A stretch of DNA of 33,282 nt from an uncultured Gammaproteobacteria bacterium (lineage in GTDB: Bacteria > Patescibacteriota > Microgenomatia > UBA12405). Of this stretch, positions 9,181-30,914 are shown piece after piece (the stretch's first letter is position 1; the number at the start of each line of letters is the position of its first letter). The position numbers and the translations under genes were made by a program. The stretch is from positions 49,698 through 82,979 of the forward strand of contig CAYXLS010000001.1 of NCBI GenBank assembly GCA_964464785.1, in the 5' to 3' direction. A model generated the notes under the pieces. It saw only the letters and a program-made list of their open reading frames with translations. It did no database searches and was not told the DNA's origin.

Positions 9181-11055
9181 ATGCCAATTTTGAATGATAT
9201 TAGAAATGTTGCGGTTATTGCCCATGTGGACCATGGCAAGACTACTTTGGTTGATGCACTTCTCAAACAAACTCATACTTTTAGGGAAAATCAGGATGAA
9301 ATGATGATGGATAGAATTATGGATAGTAATGATCTGGAAAGAGAAAAAGGAATCACAATTTTGTCAAAAAATACATCTGTTTTTTACTCTCCTTTAAATC
9401 AAGACTTGAAAAATCAAAATAAGGCTATAAAAATAAATATAATTGATACTCCAGGACACGCAGATTTTGGCGGAGAGGTAGAAAGAGTTTTAAATATGGT
9501 TGATGGGGTATTACTAATTGTTGATGCAGCAGAGGGGCCCTTATCTCAAACAAAGTTCGTTTTGAAAAAAGCATTAGAGTCTAAATTAAAAGTAATATTG
9601 ATTATTAATAAAATAGATAGAAAAGACCAAAGAATTAAAGAAGTACTGACAGATACTGAAAATTTATTTCTGTCTTTAGTTGACGATTCAGATTTATTAG
9701 ATTTTCCAGTAATATATTGTGTTGGTAAAGATGGTAAGGCATATAAAAAAATACCCGAATGTTACGAAGATAAATCCGATATAAGTCCAATATTTGAACA
9801 AATTTTAGAGACGATACCAAATGCTGTTAAAAATATTGATCAACCTTTTCAGATGTTGGTATCATCTTTTGAAAAAAATGAATATTTAGGAAGGTTGGCG
9901 TTGGGAAGAATAAACCAAGGAATAATTAAAAAAGGAATGATGGTATCTCTTGTTAATAGTAATCAAAAAACAAAAAGTAATTATAAGGTAGAAAGAATGT
10001 ATGTTAACGAAGGGATAAAAAAAGTTGAAGTAGATGAGGCAGGTTGTGGAGAAATTGTATATATTGCTGGTATTCCAGAAATCGAAATAGGACAAACTTT
10101 GACTAGTATAAATTTTCAAGTAGCTTTACCATCAATTGAAATTTCTCCACCAACTATTAAAGCAAGTTTTGGACCAAATACTAGTGTTTTTGCCAAAGAG
10201 GAAGCCAAATTTTTAACAAGCCGAGAAATAAAAGAGAGATTGAAAGAAGAAGTTGAAACCAATCTTGGTTTAAAATTAGAAGACGATCCAGTTGATAGTA
10301 TTCGAATGATTGTATCTGGAAGAGGAGAACTTCATTTGGCAATACTAATTGAAAAATTACGTCGAGAAAATTATGCCTTAGAAATTGGTAAACCTGAAGT
10401 TATTTATAAAGAAATTGAGGGAAAAATTCTTGAACCATTTAACGAAATGACGATTTTAACACCAGAAGATTTTGTGGGGACGATAACTGCAGAAATGGGA
10501 AAGAGAAAGGCAGAGATGCTCGATATGCATACTGATGAAAAAATTGGGATAAAAATGATTTATAAAATTAGTGAGCGAAATGCTTTAGGGTTAAGAAGTA
10601 TTTTGATGACTGAAACAAAAGGATTAATTTCAATATCTTCTTTTTTTATAGGATATGAACAAAAAAAAGAAGATAATAATAAAGATAGAAACGGAGCATT
10701 GATTGCTTCAGAGTCAGGTAAAGCCCTATCTTATGGTTTGGATCTAGCTCAAAAAAGAGGGATAACATTTGTGGAGCCAACCGAAATGGTTTACGAAGGT
10801 CAAGTAGTCGGGATTAGGCCAGTATCGGGTGACTTGGAAATTAATGTATGTAAAGGAAAGCAACTTACAAATATGAGGGCGGCCGGGAACGATGATTCGA
10901 TTATTTTGGCACCAGCTGTAAAATATTCATTGGAAGAGTGCCTAGATTTTATAAATAATGATGAATTGATTGATGTGACCCCAAAGCAAATAAGAATTAG
11001 AAAAAAAATATTAACAAAAGTTGATAGAGTTAGAGCCGAGAGACAGAATCGCTAA
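9181..11055 (+). CDS. typA: Translational GTPase TypA/BipA
   Basis: G1 motif [10 protein letters not shown]3 motif [12 protein letters not shown] motif. The length and C-terminal region are typical of BipA. Confidence 0.93.
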
Positions 11056-11437
11056 TTTTTTGTGCAATTAAGGTCATTTCAGCTGAATTTATTTTTTTGA
11101 TGTTGTTTGGGTGAATACCACCAACATGATCGTCGTTTTCATATTTCGGAATAAGATGGATATGAGCGTGAGTTACTCCAAGTCCATATACGATTTTGGA
11201 AACTACAAGACAATTAGTTGCGGCTTGAATGGCTTGACTTAATTTTCTGGCGGTTTGCCAATATGTGCCATAAGGTTCAACTTCGTCAACCCATTGATAA
11301 TGATTTTTGGGGATCAATAATGTGTGCCCGAGATTTAAGGGATTTATGTCTAAAAAAGCTAGGAACAAATCATCTTCGTAGACTTTAAAATAAGGAATTT
11401 CGCCTTTTACAATTTTGCAAAAGATGCAATTATCCAT
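11030..11437 (-). CDS. HIT family nucleotide hydrolase/transferase
   Basis: Histidine triad HAHIHLIP. N-terminal CIFCKI. Its 3' end overlaps the typA 3' end by 26 nt, convergently. Confidence 0.9.
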   Translation of the reverse strand: MDNCIFCKIVKGEIPYFKVYEDDLFLAFLDINPLNLGHTLLIPKNHYQWVDEVEPYGTYWQTARKLSQAIQAATNCLVVSKIVYGLGVTHAHIHLIPKYENDDHVGGIHPNNIKKINSAEMTLIAQKISDSVSRL

Positions 11438-11484
11438 ATTTGTAGTATAAAGTATTAAGTGGAAAGTATAAAGTGGAAAAGAGG

Positions 11485-12504
11485 TTATTTGTCAATTTTG
11501 GGATAATTTTTTTTAATTATGTTTAACATTGTTTTTTTGGCTTCGTCTAAAGAAAGGTTTAGGGTGGCACCAGCGGCAGCTCTGTGGCCTCCACCAGCTT
11601 TGGTGGCAATAGCGATTTTTGATAAATCATAAATCTTACTATTACGAGTACGAAGACTAACTTTGACCACTTCAGGTTGAACTTCAATCAAGGTCAGAGT
11701 AATATTCCAACCAACTACAGATTTTAACATATTAGATATGTCTGAATAATTATTTAGAGTTTGAGGGCTAAATTTCTCTGATATGATTTGATCATAAGAC
11801 ATTGATGCAACAGCTACATGGTCAGAATAATGAGTTTCGATTGTTTTTAATAAAGATGAAATAAATTTGAGCCTATCAGGTTCGTCGTTATTTTCAACAT
11901 CAAAAACTAGCTCTAGGAATTTAGGGTAAATTTTGGCTAAAACTGAAGCGATAGTTAGTGTTTTATAGGTGGTGTTAATGTATTTGTAACCACCACTATC
12001 AGTATATAAACCTATATATAAACAAGCAGCAATTTTGGGAGTAATTTTTATTTTTTTTAGTTGAAATAAATCGTATAAAATTTGACAGGTGGCAGGATAT
12101 TTGGGCATTACTAAATTAATTTTGCCAAATTTTTCACAACTTAAATGATGATCTATGACAATAGTATTTAATTTTTTGGGTAACTTGATGTCTCCAAGTC
12201 GAGAAATTTGTTTTGGTGAAGATGAATCATTAATTATAAACAAATCAAATTGATCAAGGTCGATTTGAAATATATTTTTAGGAATTATTTTGTCAGCTCC
12301 AGGAATAGTCATTAAATTTTTTGGGATTTGATTGTCACCCTGAATAATGACGACATCCTTACCTATATTTTTGAGAACGTGATAAAAAGCTAAAGAAGAA
12401 CCAACACAATCACCATCTGGACCTGGATGGCAATGTAGAAGAATTTTTTTTGACCGGTCGATTTGTTTCCAAATTTTTCTACCAGTAAATCGCAAGTTAA
12501 ACAT
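11485..12504 (-). CDS. DHH/DHHA1 phosphoesterase (NrnA-like oligoribonuclease/pAp phosphatase)
   Basis: Motifs present: HCHPGPDGDCVGS, IIND, DHH and GGGHRAAAG. Confidence 0.85.
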   Translation of the reverse strand: MFNLRFTGRKIWKQIDRSKKILLHCHPGPDGDCVGSSLAFYHVLKNIGKDVVIIQGDNQIPKNLMTIPGADKIIPKNIFQIDLDQFDLFIINDSSSPKQISRLGDIKLPKKLNTIVIDHHLSCEKFGKINLVMPKYPATCQILYDLFQLKKIKITPKIAACLYIGLYTDSGGYKYINTTYKTLTIASVLAKIYPKFLELVFDVENNDEPDRLKFISSLLKTIETHYSDHVAVASMSYDQIISEKFSPQTLNNYSDISNMLKSVVGWNITLTLIEVQPEVVKVSLRTRNSKIYDLSKIAIATKAGGGHRAAAGATLNLSLDEAKKTMLNIIKKNYPKIDK

Positions 12505-12542
12505 GAGTATATTTTAACAGCTTGCTGTAAAATAGTTACTAT

Positions 12543-13490
12543 ATGATAGAAAACAAAAATAGAAAACTAGTAAATACAAAAGAACTTTTTTTAAAAGCAC
12601 ATGATAACCAATATGCGATTGGCGCTTTCAATATAAATAATATGGAGTTGGTTCAATCAGTGGTAGAAGCAGCCGAAGAGTTAAAATCACCACTAATCTT
12701 ACAAGTGTCACCAAGTGCGAAAAAATATTTTAAAAATTATTATTTAATAAAAATTATAGAAGCAACCTTGCAATTTTCAAATATTCCTTTAGTTTTACAT
12801 TTAGACCATGGCGATAGTTTTGCATTGTGTAAAGAATGTATTGACGAAGGTTATTCATCGGTTATGATTGACGGTTCTAGTTTTGATTTTGATAAAAATA
12901 TAGAAATTACGAAACAAGTAGTTGATTATGCTCATAATTTTGGAGTGACAGTGGAGGCAGAATTAGGTAAATTGTCAGGGATAGAAGATGAAATTTCAGT
13001 TGATGTCGATGAGGTCATATATACTGACCCACAAAAAGCAGTTGAATTTATTCAAAGAACTAATTGTGATTCGTTGGCTATAGCAATTGGAACAAGTCAC
13101 GGTGCTTATAAATTTAAACAAGAACCAAAATTAGATTTTGAAAGATTAAAAAAAATTAAAGAAATGGTTGGAATAAATTATCCACTAGTATTACACGGTG
13201 CTTCTAGTGTTTTGGAAAAATATGTAAAAATGAATAATGATTTTGGAGGAAAAATTGAAAATGCTATGGGAGTACCAGAAGAAATGCTAATTAAAGCTAT
13301 AAAATTAGGAGTAACAAAAATTAATGTTGACACTGATTTAAGATTGGCGTTTAGTGGAGCAATTCGAAAATATTTATCTCAAAATCCAACAGAATTTGAT
13401 CCTAGAAAATATTTAGGATCTGCAAGAGAAATAGTCAAAGAACTAGTTAAAAATAAGATAAAATTGTTTGGAAGTGAAAATGAAGGTTAA
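12543..13490 (+). CDS. fba: Class II fructose-bisphosphate aldolase
   Basis: Motifs present: AFNINNMEL, LHLDHG, GTSHGAYKF and LVLHGASSV. Confidence 0.9.
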   Translation: MIENKNRKLVNTKELFLKAHDNQYAIGAFNINNMELVQSVVEAAEELKSPLILQVSPSAKKYFKNYYLIKIIEATLQFSNIPLVLHLDHGDSFALCKECIDEGYSSVMIDGSSFDFDKNIEITKQVVDYAHNFGVTVEAELGKLSGIEDEISVDVDEVIYTDPQKAVEFIQRTNCDSLAIAIGTSHGAYKFKQEPKLDFERLKKIKEMVGINYPLVLHGASSVLEKYVKMNNDFGGKIENAMGVPEEMLIKAIKLGVTKINVDTDLRLAFSGAIRKYLSQNPTEFDPRKYLGSAREIVKELVKNKIKLFGSENEG

Positions 13491-13711
13491 TTTAATTAGC
13501 CAAATTTAGGATAACAGCATTTTTTGAAGTGTCATAAGAAATATATGCCGTATAGATATGACATCTCAAATTTGTATATTGATTAATACTATAACACTTT
13601 TTATATAGACCGGGTGCCCTTAATCACGGAAAAGGTACCTGTGCTCTGTAAGACAATAGTTTATATTATGATGATGACTATTTTTAGACCGAATAATATA
13701 AAAAAGTAAAC

Positions 13712-14837: not shown

Positions 14838-15998
14838 TTAATTGTCTTTTTTATTCCCTTTAGCATTTGGATTGCTTTGAATCCAACTGACACAATCTCC
14901 TTGATTTTTAAAGATTGGTTTATAAAATGTTTTCCAACCATTATTTTTACAATCATCTTTTAATGTTGGTGTATTTTTTACCGTGACTGTGTGCCAATCA
15001 ACTGAACCAGTATCTTTATTATCGGCAGCATCTCTGGCTTCCAGTTTTACAGTATAGTTACCTTCGGGGATAAATGTTGTATCCCAAGATAAAAGTAATT
15101 TATCAGTAAATGATGTGGTGTCATTAACTACTCCTGGACCAGCAACTGTTACGCCACTAGAGTTTTCAATAACAAACCAATAGTGATGAGGATTTATATC
15201 TGTTACTGAACCTTTTATTTCTACTATTCCAGAAACAGTAAAACCATCTATTGGAGTAGTAATTTCAACGTCAGGTGCAGTCCAATCGGCTGTAATACTA
15301 CACTCATTTGACCATTCTGAATAGTTTCCAAAATTATCTTTAGCTCTTACCTTAACAATATGAAGACCTTCATTTAAAGAACCACGATATTGTGAGGTTG
15401 TAAAAAATGGTTTCCAATCACCTCTTGTACCATCGGTTTTAGGATAATTAATCCAATATTCATAACCAGTAATTGTTCCACCAACAACTGTTGAATCTGA
15501 CCAATCAACTGTGACCATTTTGGCGTTAGTGATGGCTCCACAGTTTAGTTCAGGACTATGAAATCCAGTTACAGTTGGTGTTGTTGGGAGTGTTTTTACA
15601 TCAAATCTTGTCCAGTCAAAACGCTCATCTCCTTCTGCGCCAAAAACCATTCTTACTTCTATATACTCACTTGCAAAAATATCTTTTGTTTTTGTAGAGT
15701 TATTAACACAGACAAAAGGATATAAACCATCTGTTACTAAAGTATTATAATTTGCCCCACTTGCCTGACTAGTATCACCATCTGTTCTGTATTCAAAACA
15801 ACTGTTAAATCCTCTAGTGCTTACAAATTCTAATTTTGCTGAGCCAACATTTTTTTCAAGTTGATTAACATGTGCCCAACCATTAATACGATTAATGTCG
15901 TTCGTACTTGGCGTAACAGCATTTACTGCTGCATAAACAGGAATAGCGACAAATGCCAATGCGGCAAGTGCCATAAATAATGATAATAATTTTTTCAT
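14838..15998 (-). CDS. Secreted protein with FN3/Ig-like beta-sandwich repeats and a Cys-containing C-terminal motif
   Basis: Signal peptide MKKLLSLFMALAALAFVAIPVYA. Ig/FN3-like segments are present (TITGYEYWINYPK..., VEITTPIDGFTVSGIVEIKGSVTD). The C-terminus is DCKNNGWKTF...FKNQGDCVSW. An AAGGA Shine-Dalgarno lies upstream. Confidence 0.7.
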   Translation of the reverse strand: MKKLLSLFMALAALAFVAIPVYAAVNAVTPSTNDINRINGWAHVNQLEKNVGSAKLEFVSTRGFNSCFEYRTDGDTSQASGANYNTLVTDGLYPFVCVNNSTKTKDIFASEYIEVRMVFGAEGDERFDWTRFDVKTLPTTPTVTGFHSPELNCGAITNAKMVTVDWSDSTVVGGTITGYEYWINYPKTDGTRGDWKPFFTTSQYRGSLNEGLHIVKVRAKDNFGNYSEWSNECSITADWTAPDVEITTPIDGFTVSGIVEIKGSVTDINPHHYWFVIENSSGVTVAGPGVVNDTTSFTDKLLLSWDTTFIPEGNYTVKLEARDAADNKDTGSVDWHTVTVKNTPTLKDDCKNNGWKTFYKPIFKNQGDCVSWIQSNPNAKGNKKDN

Positions 15999-16183: not shown

Positions 16184-16369
16184 TCATTTTTTGATAAGAT
16201 TTAAGCACGCAATTCTCGCAGCATCGCTTCCCATTTTTAGACAATCCATTTTTTGTTCTTGAAAAGACTTTGGAACTAATTCTTTGTATATCTTAATTCC
16301 AAAGTAAAAAGAAACTAAAATACAAGTGATGGTAACAAAAATATTTTGAGCGTTAAATTGTCTCTTCAT
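16184..16369 (-). CDS. Small single-pass membrane protein, hypothetical
   Basis: 61 codons with an ATG start, one TM (IFVTITCILVSFYFGI) and two Cys in the tail. It is the only ORF in its module. Confidence 0.4.
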   Translation of the reverse strand: MKRQFNAQNIFVTITCILVSFYFGIKIYKELVPKSFQEQKMDCLKMGSDAARIACLNLIKK

Positions 16370-16443
16370 TTTTTATATAAATAATAGTTGGTTAAGGATA
16401 TCAAAAATTTATTGATTTATTTGTCCCCAAAACCTCATTTTTT

Positions 16444-16473
16444 TTGACATTTATATTTTATACACAATATTCT
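16444..16473 (+). promoter_or_regulatory. Possible plus-strand promoter upstream of relic copy C
   Basis: TTGACA at 16444-16449, an 18-nt spacer, then TATTCT at 16468-16473. A transcript from here would cover copy C and be antisense to the 3' end of the HNH gene. Confidence 0.25.
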
Positions 16474-16504
16474 GGTCCCCAGTAGTCACAATTATCCTTC
16501 CCGT

Positions 16505-16594
16505 TGGAATGTTACTTGGATAGAAAAGTGGGTTAAGAATTATTTAATACTCCCCATCCTGGACTCAATCAGGACTGCTGTGTGTAGATTATAA
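16505..16594 (+). repeat. ORF-tail relic copy C (long form, contiguous frame)
   Basis: WNVTWIEKWVKNYLILPILDSIRTAVCRL followed by a TAA stop. The frame is open from 16448 but contains no ATG. Its TAA (16592-16594) abuts the HNH stop (16589-16591), giving TTATAA. Confidence 0.8.
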
Positions 16595-17101
16595 ACTGTA
16601 TAGTTCTGAATTATTAGGGTTTTCTTTAATATTGATTAAAGATGAAAAATGAAGCGACTCGTGACATTTTCTGCATAAAGTTATCACATCTTTTTTAGTC
16701 TCATTTCCAATGTTCTCGTAATTCAAATGATGGAGATTGAGCATTTCAGTACCACCGCATTTTTCGCATTTGTTTTTCTTAAACTTATTCTTAGTTTGTT
16801 CCCAAATTTCACTATGAAGATACATCCCATATTCATTTTTATTAAGAGGTAGTTTGGTAATTTTAAATTCTTCCTTTATTTTCCATTTATAACACCCTGA
16901 GTTTGCAATTACCCCAATTTTTCCAGGTTTACCATAAAAAAAATATTGTCCAATAGCATACCCATATGGCCAATTTTTAATCTTTATACTTTTGATAAGT
17001 ACGTAATGCCCACTAGTTTCACTCCACGAATCTGATACTGCCTTAAATGGTAATTTTTCACCGTTTTCTCTCCATAGCTCAAAAAGGTTTTTTGAATCCA
17101 T
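16589..17101 (-). CDS. HNH endonuclease with an uncharacterised N-terminal domain
   Basis: The C-terminal CEKCGGTEMLNLHHLNYENIGNETKKDVITLCRKCHESLH is a CxxC...HH...N...CxxCH HNH motif. Confidence 0.75.
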   Translation of the reverse strand: MDSKNLFELWRENGEKLPFKAVSDSWSETSGHYVLIKSIKIKNWPYGYAIGQYFFYGKPGKIGVIANSGCYKWKIKEEFKITKLPLNKNEYGMYLHSEIWEQTKNKFKKNKCEKCGGTEMLNLHHLNYENIGNETKKDVITLCRKCHESLHFSSLINIKENPNNSELYSL

Positions 17102-17278
17102 AGTGTAATAAGATGCCCATACTTTAGATAATGCTCTATTATACCGCCAATTTAATTATTTACAAAATTTTGTATTTTCAGTTATTTTTTTACCACAAGA
17201 TGAACAATACGTTGTTAAGTTGATTATATTACATTTTGGAGTAAAAATAAGATAAATCTGTGCGCTTGAATAAAATAA

Positions 17279-17323
17279 TCCTCCACCTTGGACTCAATCA
17301 GGACTGCTGTGTGGGTTGTATGA
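17279..17323 (+). repeat. ORF-tail relic copy D (short form)
   Basis: SSTLDSIRTAVWVV followed by a TGA stop. An in-frame TAA at 17276-17278 precedes it. It ends 10 nt before the stop of the gene at 17333. Confidence 0.8.
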
Positions 17324-17332
17324 CAGAAGTTG

Positions 17333-17887
17333 TTAATCAAATTTAACAAGTTCATGAATTTTTGCCAAAGCTTCTCTTGCTAGATTATTATCATTAAAAG
17401 CATCAGCTATAGTTAATTGTGTCATATAAATCAAAATATCAACATGAACCTTGCTAATCAGCAAAGAACCTATCATTTTAATAGTAATGTTTTCTTCAAT
17501 TAATGAGTCCATTACATCAAAAGTAAAGCGGGTTAGTAGGTTGCCTGAATCCTCTGCTTCATTATAACGGTTTATTAATGACTCATATTTATCTTTAAAT
17601 GGACTACAATAGGCTTCGGTAAGCATCGGGAAAAATTTATTAGCATCTTCTTTGGTAATTAAATTATTGTTTAGGGCAATATTTGGTATTATTTTTATTT
17701 GAAAACTTGAAACAGGAAACACGCAGTTTTCCATATATTTGTCTTTGATTATGATTTTATTATTCCCAAAAAGATCTTTCCCATTAGATAAGTCATTTTT
17801 TACAATATTTATCCAATTACTTCTATGTATAGTAAGTGTGTCTCTTATATTAGATATTTTTGGAATCCAAAAAAGTGATTTAAGCAT
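17333..17887 (-). CDS. Hypothetical cytoplasmic protein (operon gene 5 of 5)
   Basis: ATG start 13 nt after the upstream stop. There is no TM and no motif I recognise. Confidence 0.6.
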   Translation of the reverse strand: MLKSLFWIPKISNIRDTLTIHRSNWINIVKNDLSNGKDLFGNNKIIIKDKYMENCVFPVSSFQIKIIPNIALNNNLITKEDANKFFPMLTEAYCSPFKDKYESLINRYNEAEDSGNLLTRFTFDVMDSLIEENITIKMIGSLLISKVHVDILIYMTQLTIADAFNDNNLAREALAKIHELVKFD

Positions 17888-17900
17888 AAATTGGTATGAG

Positions 17901-18545
17901 TTATAAATTTCCTGCTTTAATTTCCTTACGAACTAAAGCATTAAAAGTTGTAGACTGTTCTACTTCTTTTTTATATTTACTTAAGTCCATAACAGTTCTT
18001 TTACTCATATATGTATTAACCCTATCTTTTAATTCAAAAGGCAAGGGGCGGTCATCACCCTTTGTGTTACTCGTATCTTCCGGATCACCATAGAGAGGAT
18101 AATATTTCCTCAATCTATCCATGGCTTCATCCATTGATAAATTATTATTTTGCATGTAATTAATCATGCAGGCCATATGGAGTTCGTTATCATATTCTAC
18201 AGTTACCCACCGTTCAATATCACATAGATTCCACCAGAGAGATATATCCTCATCTGTTACACCCTCCTTTCTTTTTGTAGGTATTTCTTTACAAATTGAT
18301 TCTGCATATTTTTTGACTAGTTCATCGTCAGTTTTAGTAACACCTAAAATAATATCTCCCATGATTTTAGGTAAATTGTTATATGTTCCTGCTTTTTTAG
18401 ATTGCTCAATTGCTCTATCAAGTAAGTCTTCTGCGGCTTTTTTAGCATCCTCCTCAGACATACCTTGAGAAGTGTAACCTTGAGTATAAATATTAATTAA
18501 TTCATTCTCTTCACTTTTATATTTTGAGAAGTTAAATAGTCCCAT
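17901..18545 (-). CDS. Hypothetical acidic cytoplasmic protein (operon gene 4 of 5)
   Basis: ATG start 20 nt after the upstream stop. It looks helical. It contains YYPLYGDPEDTSNTKGDDRPLPFELKDRV, and I recognise no family. Confidence 0.6.
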   Translation of the reverse strand: MGLFNFSKYKSEENELINIYTQGYTSQGMSEEDAKKAAEDLLDRAIEQSKKAGTYNNLPKIMGDIILGVTKTDDELVKKYAESICKEIPTKRKEGVTDEDISLWWNLCDIERWVTVEYDNELHMACMINYMQNNNLSMDEAMDRLRKYYPLYGDPEDTSNTKGDDRPLPFELKDRVNTYMSKRTVMDLSKYKKEVEQSTTFNALVRKEIKAGNL

Positions 18546-18565
18546 ATTTTTTATTAATTAATAAC

Positions 18566-19696
18566 TTAGATTGAATGTACCCTATCTTCAAGAATGGTTT
18601 TATATTGAATTTGAATTTTTTTCATCACATCAGAAGTAAATTTAGGGTTATCTCTTATTGACCGGATATCATATCTTCCATCGGCAAGTTTATATACCCA
18701 AACAGTGAATATTTGATCAGGTTTATCTTGAAATATAATTGAAATTTCTACTCCCCCGACAATACTGTCGTTTATTGAAAATACAATAAATTTACTTTTA
18801 TAATAATTTTTATCAAATGAAGCTAAACCTCCTGTATAATCTCCTATCTTGTGAGTTTCAATGACTAGTTCTGGAGAGTCCATACCAACATTTGTACCAT
18901 CCAGATATCCATTTAAAACCTTACGAATATGAAGTACATAAGGATCTTTTGTTGTTTGATAGTAATCCTCTAATTGATCTTTTGTAAATACAATAGGTTC
19001 AACTTTTGTTGATTCAGGTGGTATTTGCCAATCAAAGGCTCCGTAGGTGCTAGGAATCGTTGTATTTTCCTCAGTACATCCTTTTGGTGTTGGAACGATA
19101 ATAATTTTTTTTCTCCAATCAAATAATGTATCTAACTGATCATAAAAATCATTGTATTTATGTACAGCATCATCCTGTTGCTTCCTTATTTCATCATAAT
19201 TGGACATTAATTCGTCGCTACTAATCTTTTTATCCCAAAGATTTAATATACTTTGAGCGTCATTAAGATAATATTTTGTCATTTCCATTTGATAATCAAA
19301 AAATTTCTTAAAATACCAAGGTTCAATCAGCTTATAATCTAGACGATTAATAAAACTATTTTGCTTCTCAATCCAATTATTTTCTTCAGCAACATATTTT
19401 CTCATTTCAGAGATATAGTCGCCGATAAATGTTTGAAGATCTTCTTTTTTGTATTTTTCTGGAAATTTTGTATAGTCAATATACTTTAAATATGAGTTTT
19501 TGTAGGCAATACGAGGTGGGTTAACATTGGTACACCGGTACTCATATATTTTATTTCCAATTATTGAGAGGGAATGAAGTTTGTAAAGATAAACACCAAA
19601 AATTAAAATAGATATACCAATTAAAATTAAAAATATCTTAAATATTTTATTCTTATTCATTTTTGTTCTAATTACTAGGAGTATACCTCTTTTCAA
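18566..19696 (-). CDS. Membrane-anchored protein with a large extracytoplasmic domain, hypothetical (operon gene 3 of 5)
   Basis: One N-terminal TM (IFKIFLILIGISILIFGVYLY). The ORF-track start at 19696 is TTG, and the ATG at 19660 (MNKNKIF) is an alternative. Confidence 0.6.
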   Translation of the reverse strand: MKRGILLVIRTKMNKNKIFKIFLILIGISILIFGVYLYKLHSLSIIGNKIYEYRCTNVNPPRIAYKNSYLKYIDYTKFPEKYKKEDLQTFIGDYISEMRKYVAEENNWIEKQNSFINRLDYKLIEPWYFKKFFDYQMEMTKYYLNDAQSILNLWDKKISSDELMSNYDEIRKQQDDAVHKYNDFYDQLDTLFDWRKKIIIVPTPKGCTEENTTIPSTYGAFDWQIPPESTKVEPIVFTKDQLEDYYQTTKDPYVLHIRKVLNGYLDGTNVGMDSPELVIETHKIGDYTGGLASFDKNYYKSKFIVFSINDSIVGGVEISIIFQDKPDQIFTVWVYKLADGRYDIRSIRDNPKFTSDVMKKIQIQYKTILEDRVHSI

Positions 19697-19719
19697 TTAA
19701 ATTTATGTTATTTATAACC

Positions 19720-19911
19720 TTATTTATTTCTCAAATTAAATTTAACCCACAACTCTGCTAAACCAGATAAGTTATTGGCGATTTCTGTTACATCATCATC
19801 AGTAAGTGCTCTTTTGTATAAAGGCTCAAACATATTAATAACCTCTTCTTTCAATTCATCACTTAGCCAATCTTTATATTTAATTGGTATTACTTTTTGG
19901 GAACATTTCAT
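19720..19911 (-). CDS. Small acidic hypothetical protein (operon gene 2 of 5)
   Basis: 63 codons, with an ATG 13 nt after the upstream stop. It is tightly packed between its neighbours. Confidence 0.5.
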   Translation of the reverse strand: MKCSQKVIPIKYKDWLSDELKEEVINMFEPLYKRALTDDDVTEIANNLSGLAELWVKFNLRNK

Positions 19912-19924
19912 AATTATTTTTAAT

Positions 19925-20470
19925 TCAAAACTCCATTGATTTAGTTGTTCCTACCACTTCAATAGTTTTAATATCAATATTTTCCATACAATGTTTTTGT
20001 CCAACTTGCCAGTAGACACAGTCATCCTCACCTTTTGTACCTGTTATTTTGAATACCGAATCTCTGTTGCCTTCAATAAATTTTACCCATTTATCAGTTA
20101 GCGCCAAATCATCTGGCACATTAATAGGCATAGCCCAAAACCAAGCATATTGATTGTCAGGTTCAAGTACTTTATGTGTTTTTATGTCATACCACCTAAA
20201 CCTAACTTCTCCAGAAGTGGAATTCTTTCTTACAACACCATAATAGATTATAAGTGAACCTGTATCTTTTGGAAAACTTAACATATTACTACCACCTGGT
20301 ATATAAGACCCCTCAACTTTATTTTCGTTTACAACAGGTGTTTTAATAACAACCTCTTTATTACCTTTATTTTGGATATAATTTACAACCTTATAACCTA
20401 TACCTAAAACAACTAGGATAAAGATTAGTTTGAGTATATTTTTATTTATATTTTTATATATGGCACTCAA
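19925..20470 (-). CDS. Membrane-anchored hypothetical protein with a beta-rich ectodomain (operon gene 1 of 5)
   Basis: N-terminal TM (ILKLIFILVVLGIGY). The start is TTG and no in-frame ATG lies nearby. It begins 60 nt downstream of the GmrSD-like gene. Confidence 0.55.
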   Translation of the reverse strand: MSAIYKNINKNILKLIFILVVLGIGYKVVNYIQNKGNKEVVIKTPVVNENKVEGSYIPGGSNMLSFPKDTGSLIIYYGVVRKNSTSGEVRFRWYDIKTHKVLEPDNQYAWFWAMPINVPDDLALTDKWVKFIEGNRDSVFKITGTKGEDDCVYWQVGQKHCMENIDIKTIEVVGTTKSMEF

Positions 20471-20530: not shown

Positions 20531-22657
20531 TCAAGTAAACCTAGTGACTAAATATTCATTTATTTCTCTAATACCTAGTTCCTGCGAAGAATTACCACTA
20601 CGAACATAAAATTTATCAACACTTTGATTATTATCAGAAATTTTTAAATATAAAGGTTTATTACCTTTTGCGATATCAATCTGGCAGATTTCTTTATCTG
20701 TTACTTGAATAAATTTTATAGTTAATGCTGATGTAGCAAAATTTATCCCAAAAGATTGGTTGATTAAATGTCTCAAATGTAATTCAAATTCATCTTTTGT
20801 ACCATCAAGTGATACATAATCTCTTTGTAATCCTAAGATTTCACCTTCATCGTTAACCCCTATTATAAGTGTTCCGCCTTCTCCATTAGAAAATGCAGAA
20901 ATTGATTTAAGAATTACTGTTTCTATTTTTTTATCAATACTTTCACTGATGTAATTCCATCTTAATGACGACTTAAATTCAAGTTCATTACTCTCACCCT
21001 TATTTATAATATCTTCTATTGATACTGCTGTAACTGATTCCTCTGTTTTCGTTATTCCTTCTAAAAATTTATTCATTTCATTTGATAATAATTTTCTTCG
21101 TGCTATCAAAAAATCTTCAAATCTGTCTAATTCCCAAAGAGCTTCACCTTCCGGAATACATTGAAGTTTTAAGGCTTGTGGGTACTTTTCCTTTACAGAT
21201 TTTAAATAATCTTTTGCTTGCTTGGCACTTTTACCCCTATTAGCTAATTGAGTTAAAATTGCCCTATTGGTTATTTCCTGGGCTAATGAATATTTATGAC
21301 GATTATTCATGTTGTATCCGTGGGACTTTAATATAGAGTAAGGAAAAATATGATCCCATTCCAACATATATCTGCTCCCCATATTCTGTCTAATACTTAG
21401 CCCAGTGGTCAAACAAACCGCATTTTTACTTTTAAAATACCATCTCATCATACTATAAAGAGCATTACTAACACCTGCTCCTTCAAATTCATCCGGAGAT
21501 ATTTCTAATGGTCTTTCTTGTTTAATTGTGTTTAACATTTCATCAAAAGGGTTTTTTGAATTAGCAACAATTCCCAAATCTTTATCTAATTTTTGTTGTA
21601 ATTGGCTAATATATCTTTGTCTAATTTGTGAATAATAAAACCATTTTATTATTTTCTTTATTTCTATTTGAGTTAATGATTCATTTCCTTTTTTAAATAC
21701 ATAAGAAATAATAGGTACTATCGCATAAACAGAATTAATTTCACTTGAGTGATCTATATATGCTTGAGATCTAAGTAAACTAACAACATAATCAAGTATT
21801 TTTTCATCAAGCTGTTTCCAGGCTTCTTTTAGTTTTACTTCGTTATCACTTGAATGAAGTTTTGTCATGTCAGAACCCATGTTGTATAACATACCCAATA
21901 AGCAATAAATAATAAAATCTAGTTTGAAGTTGAAACCACTTTCTTTAAGTGCTATTAGTTTTTCTTTAAATGTTTCTCTAGCTTTAGGCCAATAACCTGA
22001 TATTTGAGCTAGTGCTAATTCAGCATCCGTCAAATTAACTCCACTAGCATTAACTATATAAAAAATATTAATAGCTTCTCTAAGAGAAGCTTTAATTGGA
22101 ACTGATTGTTCAACAAACTCTTTATCAGGGATACTATCAATTGCACGAAAATTATCAGCTATTCTGTCTTCATCTTCTCTCGTTAAAGTAACGCCCTTAT
22201 CTTGTAAACCGCGAGTAATATCTCTTTCTCTAATGTTCTTTTGAAAAATATCGGTAATATTGACCCAATATGGATTGCTATCCATCATATTTTTTTTGTA
22301 ATATTGAAGGTCTAGGTCGTTAATATTTACATATAGCCCCCTAGGATCGTTTAGTATTTCACTTTCTTTGTAATAAGAAGGTATTTTATTTCTAATTAGT
22401 AAATATAAAGTTGTAATTCTTTGTTGACCATCAAGAATTATTTTTACTGCTCCTTGTCTTGGATCATATTGCCAATCACCTTTTAATTCTGGTGGTGTAT
22501 TTGTATCCCAAGTTAACATAGTTCCGGTGGGATAATCTTTTATCAAAGATGAAATTAAATCTTTTGCATCTTCTCTCTTCCAAACATATTCTCTTTGAAA
22601 AGCTGGAACAAATAATTGATTGTCGTCTATTTTGTCTAATATTTGATTAATTTTCAT
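20531..22657 (-). CDS. GmrSD-family (DUF262 + DUF1524) nuclease fused to a C-terminal AlbA_2/Schlafen-like domain
   Basis: DUF262: FVPAFQREYVW and ILDGQQRITTLYLL. DUF1524/HNH-like: EWDHIFPYS...EITNRAILTQLANRGK. C-terminal 155 aa (20534-20998): ESNELEFKSS...ISAFSNGEGGTLIIGVNDEGEILGL...FYVRSGNSSQEL. Confidence 0.85.
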   Translation of the reverse strand: MKINQILDKIDDNQLFVPAFQREYVWKREDAKDLISSLIKDYPTGTMLTWDTNTPPELKGDWQYDPRQGAVKIILDGQQRITTLYLLIRNKIPSYYKESEILNDPRGLYVNINDLDLQYYKKNMMDSNPYWVNITDIFQKNIRERDITRGLQDKGVTLTREDEDRIADNFRAIDSIPDKEFVEQSVPIKASLREAINIFYIVNASGVNLTDAELALAQISGYWPKARETFKEKLIALKESGFNFKLDFIIYCLLGMLYNMGSDMTKLHSSDNEVKLKEAWKQLDEKILDYVVSLLRSQAYIDHSSEINSVYAIVPIISYVFKKGNESLTQIEIKKIIKWFYYSQIRQRYISQLQQKLDKDLGIVANSKNPFDEMLNTIKQERPLEISPDEFEGAGVSNALYSMMRWYFKSKNAVCLTTGLSIRQNMGSRYMLEWDHIFPYSILKSHGYNMNNRHKYSLAQEITNRAILTQLANRGKSAKQAKDYLKSVKEKYPQALKLQCIPEGEALWELDRFEDFLIARRKLLSNEMNKFLEGITKTEESVTAVSIEDIINKGESNELEFKSSLRWNYISESIDKKIETVILKSISAFSNGEGGTLIIGVNDEGEILGLQRDYVSLDGTKDEFELHLRHLINQSFGINFATSALTIKFIQVTDKEICQIDIAKGNKPLYLKISDNNQSVDKFYVRSGNSSQELGIREINEYLVTRFT

Positions 22658-22686: not shown

Positions 22687-25600
22687 TTAGTTTTGATTTT
22701 TAAAGTCTAATTTTGGCAAGGAATTAACAATATCAACCGTTTGAACACTGACATTAATGATACTGAGCAATAAATCTAAAATATATTTAGGATTGCCAAC
22801 TTCTTCTGCCCAGTCATTTGGGTCATTTTTGATGCCACTGTCTTTATTTGTGGTGACTTGATAGCGTTCCATTATCCATTCAATTGCACTCTTACCATTT
22901 ACAATATATTCATAAGCCTTAACAGGAATCTTTGAAATGATGATTTTATTGTTATAAATGATTGTGTCTTTTTGATTTTTTTTAGGAAATCGCATTTTAT
23001 CTACTCTAAAATCATTACTTTCCTCACCTGTAACTTCAACATCGTTATAAGCTGGTACTTTTTCATAATTGATGTGTAGATCACCTAGTTTTCTACCGGC
23101 TTTACTAAATTTCCAAAAATCATTAAGATCTTCAACAAGTGGAATACGAGGTAACATTTTTTTTAAATCACTAGAGAACATTGTTTTGTACTCTGGACTA
23201 TGTAAAAAGCCATAAACATAATAAAAAATATCTTCTTTATTAATATTTTTACCATACATTTTTTTAGCCCTATTTAAAATAAAATCTGATACTCCATCCT
23301 TGCAGATATATTCGCTTTTCCCTGGTTCTTCAAATAAACCTATGTTTTGTTTCTCGCGCTCTTCATAATAATTTAGAGGAAAGCACTGAGAAGCAGCATT
23401 AATACCAAGATCCGGAATTTTATCTACCATCAAGACTGAAAAATCTTTTGTGCTGCCATTTCCAGGTACACATATTAACTTATTTGTAATATTTTTTTGG
23501 GGAAACAACTTTGGTAGTTGATAAACACGATTAATCAAACTTCTATTAAAATATACTTTTTGATTAAAAAATGGACGATAGATTGAATTTGTGATTGATT
23601 CGTTTTGAAATTGATATTTTTTATATTTGGCAAGGTCAACTTTTTGAGCATAATCCCAAGTAATATTTTTTGAATCAGTATCAATGAAATTATCTAACTT
23701 AAGATCAGGATTATTTTTTTTCTCAATTATAAAGCTATCAACTTGTTTATTAAAAAAATTTATTGTTTTATTAATATTATTTGAAAGTTCATTTGTTGAG
23801 GAGTTGTAACTCCAAGCATCCCTATTTGTTTTTAGTCCATTGGAATAAAAAGTAAAAAAAGAAGTGGCTAATTGATTTTTATTTTTTCCAAGTTCTATAA
23901 ATTCACTAAATAAATCATTGCGTTGACTTATCCAATCTCCGTGTTTGTTTGGGTATATACTATCCCATTTTATTGCCGAATTACTTATAGAACTAAAATT
24001 TTTAATGATGTTTATTTTTTCTTCTCTGTTTTTATAATCCTCTATTTCGTGATAATAAATTTGAGCCTTTTCGTTTGTTTTTTTAGGATTTTTAACTAAT
24101 AGAGTAATTGAAATGGGAGTCCGTGAACCACCTCCAAAAACATTACCTGCCTCTTTTCTTCTTAATTCACCTTGAGTACGAGCATTCCCTCTGGTATTAA
24201 ATATATAAATCGTTGAAAACTCTTTTTCTAAACATTTACGAAAACCATCGGTACTATTACTATCCAACCAGGATCCATTAGAAACAAAAGCAATAATTCC
24301 ACCATTTTGTGGATCCAGCCGATCTGTACTCCACCTAAAAGCTTTTATATAAGAATCGTATAATGAATTTTTTAAAATAGCGTTTGATTCAAAAGCATAA
24401 GTTTTTGCTATTCTTGAATCTAATTTATCATATTTTTGATTTTGAGCGTTATCATTAGCGGCTTTTTGTCCAGCAGAATATGGAGGATTACTAATTATTA
24501 CCCTAATAGGGCTCTTTTTTTGTTTTTGTACTTGTTCTGAATTTTGTGGAAACATTTTTGAAAAAAGTCTTTCACTAGAGTCAGTTTCGCCTAATTGAAA
24601 TGTATCAGTAAGACAGATACCATTAAAAGCTTTATACTCATTAGCCTTTGTTAGGTCGTGGTAAACATTTTCAATATTTACAGCTGCTATGTAATAAGCC
24701 AATAAAACTATTTCGTTAGCATGAATTTCGGACTCGTATTTTCTTTTTAAATCTTTGGATTCTATTAATCCACTTTGAAGTAAACGCGTTATAAATGTAC
24801 CAGTACCAGTAAACGGATCTAAGATGTGAACATTGTCATCAGTAAAAGTACAATTAAATTCCTTCTGAAGAACTTCGTTAACAGAATGTATTATAAAATC
24901 AACAATTTCTACTGGAGTATAAACAATTCCTAACCTCTCTACGGTTTTGGGAAAAGCCGTTTTAAAAAATTTATCATATAACTCAATTATTATTCGCTGT
25001 TTCCCTTCTGCATTATTTATTCCTTCGGTTCTTTTTTTAACCGATTCATAAAATTTTTGAAGCACTTCTAAATCTTTGTTTGATGTTTCTCCTTCTAATA
25101 AATCAAGCATTTTTTGCATTGATATTGAAATTGAATTATTTTTTACAAAAGAATATTTTTCAAATAATGCCTCAAAAACAGGTTTGGTAATAATATGTTG
25201 AGAAAGCATTTCTATTGCATCTTGTTCAGTAATACTGGGGTTAATATTCTTCCTTAATCCGTTTACAAAATCATTAAAGGCTTGGTGATCAGAAGCATCT
25301 TCTTTAACAAGTTGGCTAATTCGTTTTGCTTGTCTTTCGGCAATTTCAGCAATGTTTTTTGCCCACTGTTCCCAATAAGTGCGATCCCCTACCTTCTTTA
25401 CCATTTTGGCAAAAACAACATTTTGAAGTTGGTTAAATTGCAAAGATAATTGACTTGAGAGATTTTTTGCAGTCTCTTGACTTGATCCGTCATCAGTAAC
25501 CAAAACCGGCTTACCATCATCATCAAAAGAAAATACCCCTCTTCCAACCGATATTTGTGCTGGTCTATTTTTATTCAGTTCAATTTTATTAACAGTGGCA

Positions 25601-27567
25601 TTAAAACGATCGTCGTGTGCCCTTAGGGCATTTAGTACTGACCAGACCACTTTATAGCGATCATTATTATCTAGTGCTTTATCAGCTTCAACATCAGAAG
25701 GTATAACAATAGGAATAATAATATATCCATATTTTTTGCCAGGTGACTTTCGCATTACCCTACCAACTGATTGAACTACATCAACTTGTGAATTACGAGG
25801 AGACAGAAAAACAACTGCGTCTAAAGAAGGGACGTCTACACCTTCACTAAGACAACGAACATTTGTTAGAACACGGCATTCATTATTATCTATATCAGGA
25901 GCCTTCAACCATGACATTAATTCGTTTCGCTCTGGAGCTGACATTGTTCCATCAATGTGTTTGGATTCAATTGAAACCATACGCTCTCTTTCACTATTAG
26001 GTAGCGATTTAACATAAGCGTTGGCAGTTGAATCAAAAATCTCAGTAATTTTTTTAGAATCGGCAATTGTTTGACAAAAAGCAACCGCTCTTTTCATTGG
26101 TTCTGGGTCGCTTTCCTTAACTAATCCCTCATCGCCCAATATTTGCTTTGAAAGGGCATTAATACATCCTATTAATTTCGGTACATCGTCAGTATTAATT
26201 TCTCCTTCGGTTCCCGTGCTAGCTTTTTGAATATTAGGAGGAACATCTTTATCACTAACAGTAAGAACTAAAACCTTATAATCAGTTAAAAGGTCTTTTT
26301 CAACGGCTTCACCAAAGCCAATACGGTAGATTTCTTCACCATAAATTTTTGGATCATCCATAGAACACAAAACAGCGTCTGCTTGTTCTGCTCTAGTCTT
26401 AACATCTTCATTATATAGTCTAGGAGTCGCTGTCATGTACAATCTTTTTTTTGCACGAATAAAATTATTATCATGCACCTTAACAAAAGATGATGAATCT
26501 TCTTCAGAAAGAGTTACGCCAGTAGTTCTGTGTGCCTCGTCACAAATTATCAAATCAAATTCTCCAAATTTATCATTCTGATCAATTAATTTTTTTTGAA
26601 CTTGTGAGATTACTTCAATTGATTGATATGTTGAAAAAACTACCGTCATCCCTTTATATTCAACTAAAGGTATGTAATGCAATTGATGAATAATATTATT
26701 TACGTCGGTTGACGCCGGTAATGCTAGATCAATGGTGCTGAAACTACCACTATCAAATTTTTTGATCTTATCACTAGAAACCTTTTCATCTGAACATATA
26801 CAAATTGCTTTTATTGGATCTTTTGCTTCACTAAACCACTCCTTGAGGGCTTGACCCAATAAAGCGATTGAAGGTACTAAAAATAAAATAAAACCAGTTC
26901 CGTTTGTTTCGTTTTCTGCAATTCGTAATGAATTGAAAGTCTTTCCAGTACCACATGCCATGATAAGTTTTCCACGATCTTCATTTTTAAAATATTCATG
27001 TGTTTTATCTAATGCTTCTTGCTGGTGAGGTCTTATTGATTTTTGGGGGTTTCTTGATGCATCACCGTAAATACCATCTTCTAGTTTTTGCCAATCAACT
27101 ACTGCCTCTTGTAAATCGTAAAGATTAATTCTCGTTACTGGTGGATCCTGGTTTTTAATCGCTTGTGTAGCGTTGGAACCCCACTTGTTAGTTGTTGAAA
27201 TCCATAGACGGTGAGAAAACCCCGTTGTTCTAAGGTTTTTATCTCTAAATTTACGACCTGAAGTAGATAAAAAACTATCAACTGCAGGTTTATCAATGAC
27301 AGCATTTTCGGAATAACATTTACATTGAATAGCCCAATAATCACCATCTACAGTAAACCCAATTAAATCAATTCCCGTATCAATACCACCTAAATCATCT
27401 TTACCGAAAAATTCGTCCCACATCCACACATCTTTAAAAATACTTGAATAAACCGGATCAGTAAGCAAATAACCTTTCATTAATTTCTCAAAACGATTCC
27501 CTTTATCGTGCTCGGAAAATGATATTTCTCTGTATTTATTTAGTATGTCTTGAAAAGATAAACTCAT
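22687..27567 (-). CDS. Type ISP restriction-modification enzyme (Mrr-like nuclease, SF2 translocase, N6-adenine methyltransferase, TRD)
   Basis: Nuclease: GIDLIGFTVDGDYWAIQCKCY. Helicase: MACGTGKTF, ICDEAHRTTG, QSVGRVMR. Methyltransferase: ILDPFTGTGTFI and ISNPPYS. C-terminal YQVTTNKDSGIKNDPNDW is a Type ISP tail. The size, 1626 aa, fits this class. Confidence 0.9.
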   Translation of the reverse strand: MSLSFQDILNKYREISFSEHDKGNRFEKLMKGYLLTDPVYSSIFKDVWMWDEFFGKDDLGGIDTGIDLIGFTVDGDYWAIQCKCYSENAVIDKPAVDSFLSTSGRKFRDKNLRTTGFSHRLWISTTNKWGSNATQAIKNQDPPVTRINLYDLQEAVVDWQKLEDGIYGDASRNPQKSIRPHQQEALDKTHEYFKNEDRGKLIMACGTGKTFNSLRIAENETNGTGFILFLVPSIALLGQALKEWFSEAKDPIKAICICSDEKVSSDKIKKFDSGSFSTIDLALPASTDVNNIIHQLHYIPLVEYKGMTVVFSTYQSIEVISQVQKKLIDQNDKFGEFDLIICDEAHRTTGVTLSEEDSSSFVKVHDNNFIRAKKRLYMTATPRLYNEDVKTRAEQADAVLCSMDDPKIYGEEIYRIGFGEAVEKDLLTDYKVLVLTVSDKDVPPNIQKASTGTEGEINTDDVPKLIGCINALSKQILGDEGLVKESDPEPMKRAVAFCQTIADSKKITEIFDSTANAYVKSLPNSERERMVSIESKHIDGTMSAPERNELMSWLKAPDIDNNECRVLTNVRCLSEGVDVPSLDAVVFLSPRNSQVDVVQSVGRVMRKSPGKKYGYIIIPIVIPSDVEADKALDNNDRYKVVWSVLNALRAHDDRFNATVNKIELNKNRPAQISVGRGVFSFDDDGKPVLVTDDGSSQETAKNLSSQLSLQFNQLQNVVFAKMVKKVGDRTYWEQWAKNIAEIAERQAKRISQLVKEDASDHQAFNDFVNGLRKNINPSITEQDAIEMLSQHIITKPVFEALFEKYSFVKNNSISISMQKMLDLLEGETSNKDLEVLQKFYESVKKRTEGINNAEGKQRIIIELYDKFFKTAFPKTVERLGIVYTPVEIVDFIIHSVNEVLQKEFNCTFTDDNVHILDPFTGTGTFITRLLQSGLIESKDLKRKYESEIHANEIVLLAYYIAAVNIENVYHDLTKANEYKAFNGICLTDTFQLGETDSSERLFSKMFPQNSEQVQKQKKSPIRVIISNPPYSAGQKAANDNAQNQKYDKLDSRIAKTYAFESNAILKNSLYDSYIKAFRWSTDRLDPQNGGIIAFVSNGSWLDSNSTDGFRKCLEKEFSTIYIFNTRGNARTQGELRRKEAGNVFGGGSRTPISITLLVKNPKKTNEKAQIYYHEIEDYKNREEKINIIKNFSSISNSAIKWDSIYPNKHGDWISQRNDLFSEFIELGKNKNQLATSFFTFYSNGLKTNRDAWSYNSSTNELSNNINKTINFFNKQVDSFIIEKKNNPDLKLDNFIDTDSKNITWDYAQKVDLAKYKKYQFQNESITNSIYRPFFNQKVYFNRSLINRVYQLPKLFPQKNITNKLICVPGNGSTKDFSVLMVDKIPDLGINAASQCFPLNYYEEREKQNIGLFEEPGKSEYICKDGVSDFILNRAKKMYGKNINKEDIFYYVYGFLHSPEYKTMFSSDLKKMLPRIPLVEDLNDFWKFSKAGRKLGDLHINYEKVPAYNDVEVTGEESNDFRVDKMRFPKKNQKDTIIYNNKIIISKIPVKAYEYIVNGKSAIEWIMERYQVTTNKDSGIKNDPNDWAEEVGNPKYILDLLLSIINVSVQTVDIVNSLPKLDFKNQN

Positions 27568-30751: not shown

Positions 30752-30914
30752 TTTTACCTCCTTCGTAGTCGTCAATAATTTTCCCAGTTATATTGTCAAT
30801 TATTATTACTCCCCTACCTTTACACGTAACACAAAGATGTTTGCCATAACCAAACGTTCCATACCCGTTACAATTTGGACATTTATTAATTGAAAACTGT
30901 TCGTCTTTCGTCAT
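30708..30914 (-). CDS. Small DnaJ-type CxxCxGxG zinc-finger protein
   Basis: Contains CPNCNGYG and CVTCKGRG repeats. ATG start. Confidence 0.5.
   Translation of the reverse strand: MTKDEQFSINKCPNCNGYGTFGYGKHLCVTCKGRGVIIIDNITGKIIDDYEGGKNDLETANPGENSST

Follow-up and report, generated by a model that had tools for sequence, protein, structure and literature searches.

A probable mosaic cargo cassette of five uncharacterized genes on a serine-recombinase element in a Patescibacteria-type genome

The 33,282-nucleotide (nt) stretch analyzed here (hereafter, the window; positions 49,698 to 82,979 of contig CAYXLS010000001.1, GenBank assembly GCA_964464785.1, from an uncultured bacterium that GTDB places in Patescibacteriota) carries five consecutive minus-strand genes, g1 to g5, directly downstream of two co-oriented restriction genes, one GmrSD-like and one of Type ISP. 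In the direction of reading, these are g1 (19925-20470; 181 amino acids (aa), TTG start), g2 (19720-19911; 63 aa), g3 (18566-19696; 376 aa, TTG start; 364 aa in its database version, which starts at Met13), g4 (17901-18545; 214 aa), and g5 (17333-17887; 184 aa). A first-pass annotation, made from the sequence without database searches, had proposed that they form one dedicated defense, anti-defense, or exclusion system. Our listing of open reading frames (ORFs) reproduced the five frames and the narrow spacing of 13-23 nt on which this proposal drew (g1/g2, g2/g3, g3/g4, and g4/g5 gaps of 13, 23, 20, and 13 nt, respectively), and to judge from this spacing, the five genes are probably co-transcribed. 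Promoter and terminator scans of this AT-rich locus gave no useful excess over shuffled controls, and no Shine-Dalgarno motifs are visible on inspection of the locus. The ORFs are genuine genes rather than chance frames, because g1, g3, g4, and g5 have clear homologues and g2 is kept in a near-identical block in a second context, described below.

A hydropathy scan places one N-terminal transmembrane (TM) segment each in g1 (residues ~8-33) and g3 (~15-46) and none in g2, g4, or g5, which bears out the annotated anatomy of two N-terminally anchored ectodomain proteins accompanied by three soluble ones. In both anchored proteins, Lys/Arg residues come before the single hydrophobic segment, and conserved Cys pairs are present in the ectodomains. 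The isoelectric points (pI) are 8.7 for g1, 5.3 for g2, 8.1 for g3, 4.95 for g4, and 5.9 for g5, so the description "acidic" fits g4 and is only marginal for the small soluble protein g2, which has 11 acidic versus 10 basic residues. Scans against Pfam, NCBIfam, PADLOC, and PHROGs gave no significant match for any of the five proteins, in keeping with their having been called unrecognizable.

Outside this locus the five genes are not found together, and the proposal of one dedicated five-gene system fails on this point. The largest part of the cassette found elsewhere is g2-g3-g4-g5 on a contig retrieved by exact look-up of g4 (L002), where the four genes stand behind membrane proteins of 94, 116, 155, and 452 aa that replace g1 and the GmrSD-like and Type ISP genes upstream. 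The block common to the window and L002 comprises g2 from about codon 5, g3, g4, g5, and 150 nt downstream (17181-19898, minus strand), and its extent is visible only up to the match to window position 17181, where the L002 contig stops. The two sequences are 99.67% identical over 2754 nt (blastn), and the differences cluster in a recombination junction at 19899-19933, covering the end of g1 and the first ~4 codons of g2, upstream of which the contexts are unrelated. Downstream of this junction, a base-by-base comparison finds 1 mismatch in ~2.7 kb (99.96% identity); thus, g2-g5 was exchanged very recently as a block that did not include g1. Of the five genes, g2 has the weakest coding status, resting on conservation in this near-identical second-context block: its sole other copy is the one in L002, where it has a GTG start, and its 90% identity cluster has a single member.

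The closest divergent g4 homologue (L010, 80% protein identity) shares with the window only g4 and ~58 nt upstream, at 83% DNA identity, and its flanks are unrelated. When profiles of the g1 ectodomain (g1C), the N and C modules of g3 (g3N and g3C), and g5 were searched within ±8 kb of g4 in 67 loci from a one-genome-per-species collection, none matched, and g1C, g3N, and g3C also found nothing in the g4 loci retrieved earlier. Apart from the window, g3 and g4 are found together only in the near-identical L002 block, and more than 95% of g4 loci are without g5, g3, and g1. The idea that the genes travel together therefore holds in part: g2-g5 moved as a block in L002 and g5 is always found with g4 (see below), g1 stands apart, and there is no wider co-occurrence.

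The modular build of g3 is evident from its homologues and from an AlphaFold2 (AF2) model (models were made for g3 and g4). In the model (predicted local distance difference test (pLDDT) 91.7, predicted TM-score (pTM) 0.63), the N module (~15-200) consists of the TM helix running into a long four-helix-bundle ectodomain, followed by a flexible or disordered linker (~224-230) and an alpha/beta ectodomain, the C module (~236-376). Besides the window's own protein, 27 homologues were found, and they fall into two non-overlapping classes: proteins of ~220-235 aa that match only the TM segment and residues ~14-235, and proteins of 206-544 aa that match only the C-terminal ~140 residues, with the motif YY..Y.DPFV.H.RK.LNGYL.G...GL.SFDK.YY.SKF.V...GGK.I.IIFQDKPDK.F.AWVY...YDLRGF...ED..HAL. 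Two modules are thus fused in g3. Fold comparison left g3 as unrecognizable as the sequence had: Foldseek searches of the model against PDB gave nothing significant (E ≤ 0.001, the cut-off for all Foldseek searches), the top partial matches being chemoreceptor four-helix-bundle (4HB) ligand-binding domains and Flpp3, and the g3 alignment profile did not match PDB sequences. Apart from the block, g3 modules occur in nine loci (L004-L009 and L098-L100), none of which has homologues of g1, g2, g4, or g5; the neighbors there include an SLFN-helicase/GIY-YIG gene, PDDEXK, Type I restriction-modification (R-M), ThsB_TIR, insertion sequence (IS) elements, Fic, RhuM, and a small terminase gene.

g1 lies outside the block common to the window and L002 and is likewise modular. 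It consists of the N-terminal TM anchor and a C-terminal domain of ~110 aa, g1C (residues ~65-181), which is predicted to be extracytoplasmic. The alignment columns of g1C show an invariant Cys pair and a W/F-rich core, and its invariant residues are S84, S86, G87, W110, F140-K-I-x-G144, D150-C151, and H160-C161. By all-against-all HMMER comparison, g1C is present in 86 representative clusters, usually as the C-terminal end of proteins that span 120-540 aa and differ in their N-terminal parts, and annotated fusion partners are sporadic only (PEGA, FG-GAP). A 365-aa protein from the same 90% cluster as g1 (P0240) has an additional C-terminal, FG-GAP-like, Cys-containing module, and in another protein (P0159) this extra module is placed N-terminal to g1C; therefore, modules have been shuffled in both orders. 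Resolvase/Recombinase proteins account for 4 of the 63 g1C neighbors scanned, which also include LexA/S24, FtsK, SocA, and GP3_package proteins. In the 11 g1C loci examined, neither g3 nor g4 nor g5 is present. The g1C alignment profile did not match PDB sequences.

The third of these families, that of g4, is by far the most widespread. g4 is an acidic, soluble, all-alpha protein with 11 helices in its AF2 model (pLDDT 92.1, pTM 0.84), and homologues that match over the full length at 40-80% identity form at least 233 clusters (90% identity). They share the motifs EGVxDEDIxxWWNxxDxER, HPxYGDPxD...GDDRPLPxELKDRxNxY, and S(S/T)TFNALxRxEI, with invariant positions G63, G95, D100, W104, N106, and E171-L-K-x-R175. 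Foldseek searches with the g4 model had no match in PDB (best E 0.36, TM-score ≤ 0.23) or in BFVD (best E 0.09), the g4 alignment profile did not match PDB sequences, and when 39 family members were compared singly with PADLOC and PHROGs, only sporadic weak matches were found (in PADLOC, three to GajB, best E 5.6e-4), with no consistent PADLOC model that would mark the family as part of a dedicated system. g4 is thus a large, strongly conserved, unannotated family without a known relative or fold in PDB and BFVD, and it would merit its own Pfam/DUF entry as well as study of its structure and function. An origin in phages or plasmids finds no support, because tblastn searches against INPHARED phages and PLSDB plasmids and a pattern scan of IMG/VR gave no match.

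Many of the 67 g4 loci in the one-genome-per-species scan come from Patescibacteria classes. Other metagenome-assembled genomes (MAGs) with g4 are labeled Planctomycetota, Thermodesulfobacteriota, Nitrospirota, Nitrospinota, Atribacterota, Chloroflexota, Actinomycetota, WOR-3/Stahlbacteria, Omnitrophica, Latescibacteria, Aminicenantes, and Methanoperedens/archaea. This patchy distribution over more than 10 assigned phyla, at 35-50% identity, points to horizontal spread, with the provision that it rests on MAG assignments and that single cases may be binning errors. Three MAGs labeled Methanoperedens or uncultured archaeon (L023, L027, L040) contain g4 homologues at 43-46% identity, which reflect either cross-domain transfer, e.g., on extrachromosomal elements, or mis-binning.

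The surroundings of g4 are as varied as its hosts, with g4 homologues standing singly among variable neighbors, which again argues against a dedicated system. The 149 neighbor proteins within 2.6 kb are functionally heterogeneous and include housekeeping proteins (IlvD, PurD, FtsH, FtsZ/FtsA, DnaG, QueC, Ogg) as well as mobile or accessory ones (resolvases, an integrase, NotI, Ltp). The sole recurrent family among them is the small membrane protein DUF6804 (5 of the 149), and ORF clustering over 85 loci found no conserved neighbor. In some lineages the synteny is fixed and of the housekeeping type, namely GidB-PASTA-NadA-[g4]-Cmk-PlsC-S1 in WOR-3/Stahlbacteria (L058, L061, L062) and HD-Aldedh-[g4]-PALP-x-CdhC-like in Thermodesulfobacteriota (L066-L068), and here g4 appears to be a stable chromosomal gene. 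Eight other loci, of Patescibacteria type, have a large serine recombinase gene no more than 8 kb from g4, so that 9 of 79 g4-bearing loci have one nearby if the window, with its distance of ~13 kb, is included. At L010 positions 10001-13544, g4 is followed by a gene for an Ltp-type surface lipoprotein (PF07553) and one for a large serine recombinase, with TerB_N and HSDR_N_2 genes upstream. In sum, g1-, g3-, and g4-type genes recur near serine recombinase, R-M, TIR, Fic, and IS genes, and from the heterogeneous or mobile contexts of g1C, the g3 modules, and g4, we conclude that these are three independent, recurrent cargo families of accessory and mobile DNA.

What does recur around g4 is an apparent link to membrane proteins. 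In the window and loci L019-L085, 41 of the 73 ORFs that share the strand of g4 and lie no more than 150 nt from it have one or more predicted TM segments, compared with 251 of 791 background ORFs from the same loci (odds ratio 2.8, Fisher p = 5e-5), figures that depend on a crude hydropathy rule and on loci that are not fully independent. Some g4 homologues are fused to multi-TM regions (P0091, P0098, P0135, L046, L034), a 67-aa family with two TM segments lies directly upstream of g4 in 5 loci, and DUF6804 is found near g4 in 7. The gene upstream of g4 encodes the membrane-anchored g3 in the window and L002 and a 564-aa membrane protein in L010; the latter is a homologue of the 452-aa membrane protein of L002. 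The enrichment of TM neighbors, the multi-TM fusions, and the recurrence of small membrane proteins nearby support the view that g4 works with a variable membrane partner.

g5, by comparison, is rare: among 5.8 billion proteins, only 3 other clusters were found, at 54-58% identity, and no copy was found in JGI metagenome contigs. All three of these lineages adjoin g4, in the order g4-g5 in L016-18 and g5-g4 in L013-15. Conversely, none of the 67 genome-collection loci with g4 has g5, nor does L010, which carries the closest g4 homologue; a profile search beside other g4 genes revealed no remote copy of g5, and a hidden g5 remnant after g4 in L010 was sought by tblastn with a negative result. 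In L013 (273-7316), the g5-g4 pair stands beside a type IV secretion system (T4SS) cluster (TrbC/T4SS_pilin, PrgI, VirB4-like ATPase, M23 peptidase) and an HsdR-like helicase gene. We did not accept these T4SS genes as a sign of a conjugative element, because T4SS clusters in Patescibacteria mostly reside on the chromosome and come without a relaxase (PMC12102498).

In the window, g1 starts 60 nt after the end of the GmrSD-like gene (20531-22657, minus strand; 708 aa), which in turn starts 29 nt after the end of the Type ISP gene, so that the co-orientation and gaps given for the two restriction genes in the first-pass annotation are borne out by the ORF listing, Pfam, and PADLOC. The GmrSD-like protein combines GmrSD_N (DUF262), a weak HNH-like match (HNH_4), and a C-terminal Schlafen (SLFN)/AlbA_2 domain, with HEC-05 as its top PADLOC model (E 4.8e-49); elsewhere, this gene shows no linkage to g2-g5. 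The Type ISP/IIG gene (22687-27567, minus strand) encodes a fused R-M enzyme of 1626 aa (PADLOC REase_MTase_IIG, 2318 bits). Divergent from it lies an ORF for a very basic protein of 165 aa (27654-28151, plus strand; pI 10) with no Pfam or PHROG match, which might regulate the restriction block or the element. The minus-strand run extends up to a replication module consisting of genes for a DnaB-like helicase (28453-29448), a primase-like protein (29436-30278), and a DnaD-like loader (30275-30775), all on the minus strand and identified with PHROGs. Divergent from this module, and 400 nt from the window end, is the gene for a large serine recombinase (31284-32864, plus strand; Pfam Resolvase, Recombinase, and Zn_ribbon_recom). 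These four genes form the element backbone and uphold the mobile-element setting claimed at first pass; because the run ends at the helicase/primase/loader module with the divergent recombinase, a mobile-island setting for the five genes is reasonable.

On the other side, the first 14.5 kb of the window contain housekeeping genes (GT2, FtsEX, RF, PPIase, BipA, HIT, DHH, class II aldolase, HD). At 1943-4617, genes for FtsE (ABC ATPase), FtsX, and a coiled-coil, EnvC-like M23 peptidase lie upstream of a LytR_cpsA_psr gene; this trio is an ordinary cell-division and envelope cluster and counts as evidence that the left part of the window is chromosomal. Between the housekeeping block and g5 (14838-15998 and 16184-17101), there are genes for a 386-aa Big_3 surface protein, a 61-aa TM peptide, and a 170-aa HNH endonuclease-like protein; the last (16589-17101, minus strand) lies 231 nt downstream of g5 and is likewise part of the cargo. 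On this side, the island ends somewhere within 14.5-17.3 kb.

On the whole, we think it probable that the five genes are transcribed together as one mosaic cassette and form the variable cargo of an integrative element of the large-serine-recombinase type, in a Patescibacteria-type genome, rather than a conserved five-part system. In such a cassette, g1 and g3 would be single-pass proteins of predicted N-in/C-out topology that display modular ectodomains on the cell surface. The modules (g1C plus the four-helix bundle and the alpha/beta unit of g3) are each shuffled among many anchor and stalk architectures and recur in accessory or mobile regions. By altering cell-surface presentation, g1 and g3 may serve adhesion, partner-cell recognition, or the exclusion of incoming elements. 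g4 moves as a single-gene unit and probably acts at the membrane, on its cytoplasmic side, perhaps in concert with a membrane partner that varies and that would here be g3, and g5 would be a lineage-restricted accessory partner of g4. On the mosaic reading, if correct, this is a cargo region of the ordinary mosaic kind that should not be counted as a new five-gene defense system, which spares follow-up effort. As recurrent cargo of Patescibacterial mobile DNA, g1C, g3N, and g3C may also bear on surface change by episymbionts or their elements. Some points weigh against this reading. The tight spacing and the near-identical g2-g5 block could still mark four genes that function as a unit of very recent origin or great rarity, and defense- or addiction-type genes lie near g3 modules in 7 of the 9 contexts outside the block (a small number, without a background statistic), so that a defense-related role is conceivable. 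The crudeness of the TM-neighbor statistic, already stated, counts on the same side.

The first of the alternatives is that all five genes, or g2-g5, form a dedicated defense, anti-defense, or superinfection-exclusion system, in which the exposed g1 and g3 would sense or block phage or DNA and g4 and g5 would be a cytoplasmic effector and its regulator. The position of the cassette directly downstream of, and co-oriented with, the Type ISP and GmrSD genes on a mobile element speaks for such a system, as do the transfer of g2-g5 as a block, the retention of the g4-g5 pair in both gene orders, the adjacency of the L010 g4 homologue to an Ltp-type lipoprotein gene near TerB_N and HSDR_N genes, and the Type I R-M, ThsB_TIR, and SLFN-helicase genes beside g3-module homologues. 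However, no divergent genome has the five genes together, the overwhelming majority of g4 loci lack all of its supposed partners, and the only other copy of g2-g5 is so nearly identical to that of the window that it is not independent evidence of selection for linkage. Moreover, the housekeeping synteny of g4 is conserved in two phyla and its neighbors are otherwise heterogeneous, neither the window proteins nor the 39 g4 family members have a consistent PADLOC or PHROG match, and g4 has no match in the phage, plasmid, and IMG/VR collections. A dedicated system is, in our view, unlikely. g1 or g3 may nonetheless serve in surface exclusion, given the g2-g5 block, the g4-g5 adjacency, and the recurrence of these genes near recombinase, R-M, TIR, Fic, and IS genes.

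The membrane link of g4 also permits a more speculative reading, which we hold to be quite unlikely: g4 might be the unchanging, cytoplasmic component of a new two-part module, paired with a membrane protein that can be exchanged freely. The partner would be g3 in the window and, elsewhere, DUF6804, small two-TM proteins, or fused TM domains, with g5 as an extra subunit in a few elements. If true, a variable membrane sensor or anchor coupled to a constant cytoplasmic effector could represent a new mechanism of membrane surveillance, abortive infection, or exclusion, carried as a two-part g4 module by integrative elements.

Alternatively, the five could be lineage-specific envelope or physiology genes that lie in or beside the island and play no role in the biology of the element, with g1 and g3 as surface proteins of Patescibacterial episymbiosis, e.g., for host attachment, and g4 as a housekeeping factor. 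The fixed housekeeping positions of g4 in WOR-3/Stahlbacteria and Thermodesulfobacteriota, and its adjacency to RecG, FtsH, FtsZ/FtsA, or DnaG genes in some Patescibacteria, fit this proposal, and the conserved Cys pairs and shuffled stalks of the g1C and g3 modules are typical of variable surface proteins. It seems decidedly improbable, however, given that the window genes lie between the restriction genes and the HNH gene, toward the recombinase as seen from the housekeeping block, and that g2-g5 and g4 have clearly been swapped between unrelated contexts. Serine recombinase, IS, Fic, and R-M genes also recur around the homologues of g1C and g3C and around Patescibacterial g4, and the patchy occurrence of g4 over many assigned phyla at low identity points to horizontal spread.

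That g4-g5 is a toxin-antitoxin or addiction module stabilizing the element, with g1-g3 as unrelated passengers, is highly improbable: the two are small, soluble, adjacent genes 13 nt apart on mobile, accessory DNA and are paired in three divergent lineages, with the order inverted in one, but neither matches a known toxin-antitoxin family, and g4 is without g5 in nearly all loci, including its closest relative at 80% identity, and is stably embedded among housekeeping genes, which is not expected of a toxin or antitoxin that needs its partner.

Comparison with known systems returns us to the mosaic reading. At the level of single proteins, g4 resembles PspA/Vipp1 (IM30, ESCRT-III superfamily) in being all-alpha and soluble and in occurring beside or fused to membrane proteins. 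The g4 family also begins much like PspA (MGIFSRF) and Vipp1 (MGLFDR), with MG[LFI]F at the start of 31 of 39 members (18531-18545 in the window), a likeness of only ~4 residues. Homology was rejected, as g4 has no PF04012 match and no Foldseek match to PspA/Vipp1 structures. A PspA-like amphipathic helix was rejected as well: the hydrophobic moment of residues 2-12 is 0.29 as the family mean and 0.23 in the window, compared with 0.33 for the background and 0.57 for PspA. The shared start is probably a coincidental or convergent motif. The g3 N module is reminiscent of the 4HB domains of chemoreceptors (PcaY_PP, PDB 6s37 and 6s1a), which likewise form a membrane-proximal antiparallel helical bundle continuing a TM helix, although the resemblance is weak (Foldseek probability 0.7-0.8, TMt 0.46-0.48, E 0.75-1.4, not significant). 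Unlike these receptors, g3 has one TM segment only, ~14 cytoplasmic residues, and no cytoplasmic signaling domain, and there is no sequence similarity.

The Ltp family is known from phage superinfection exclusion. Ltp-type lipoproteins (PF07553) are, like g1 and g3, element-encoded, membrane-tethered, and predicted to be surface-exposed, and an Ltp gene occupies the slot beside g4 in L010. In contrast to them, g1 and g3 are anchored by a TM helix, no lipobox was identified, and a Pfam search at E ≤ 1 found no Lipoprotein_Ltp (PF07553) match in either protein. The HEC-05 (GmrSD-family) and Type ISP enzymes are the immediate upstream neighbors on the same strand, and neither system has any of the five genes among its parts: both are missing where g2-g5 stand in L002 and where g4-g5 stand in L013-L018.

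The closest parallel is with the cargo regions of integrative elements of large serine recombinases, prophage "moron" loci, and defense hotspots. As in these, a recombinase and replication backbone is followed by co-oriented R-M, GmrSD, HNH, and uncharacterized genes, and elements with nothing else in common trade cargo one gene or one small block at a time. The differences lie in the Patescibacteria-type host, in the five genes being outside described families, and in the element being a putative one. The locus is thus a further example of a mosaic accessory region of a mobile element, rich in uncharacterized genes.

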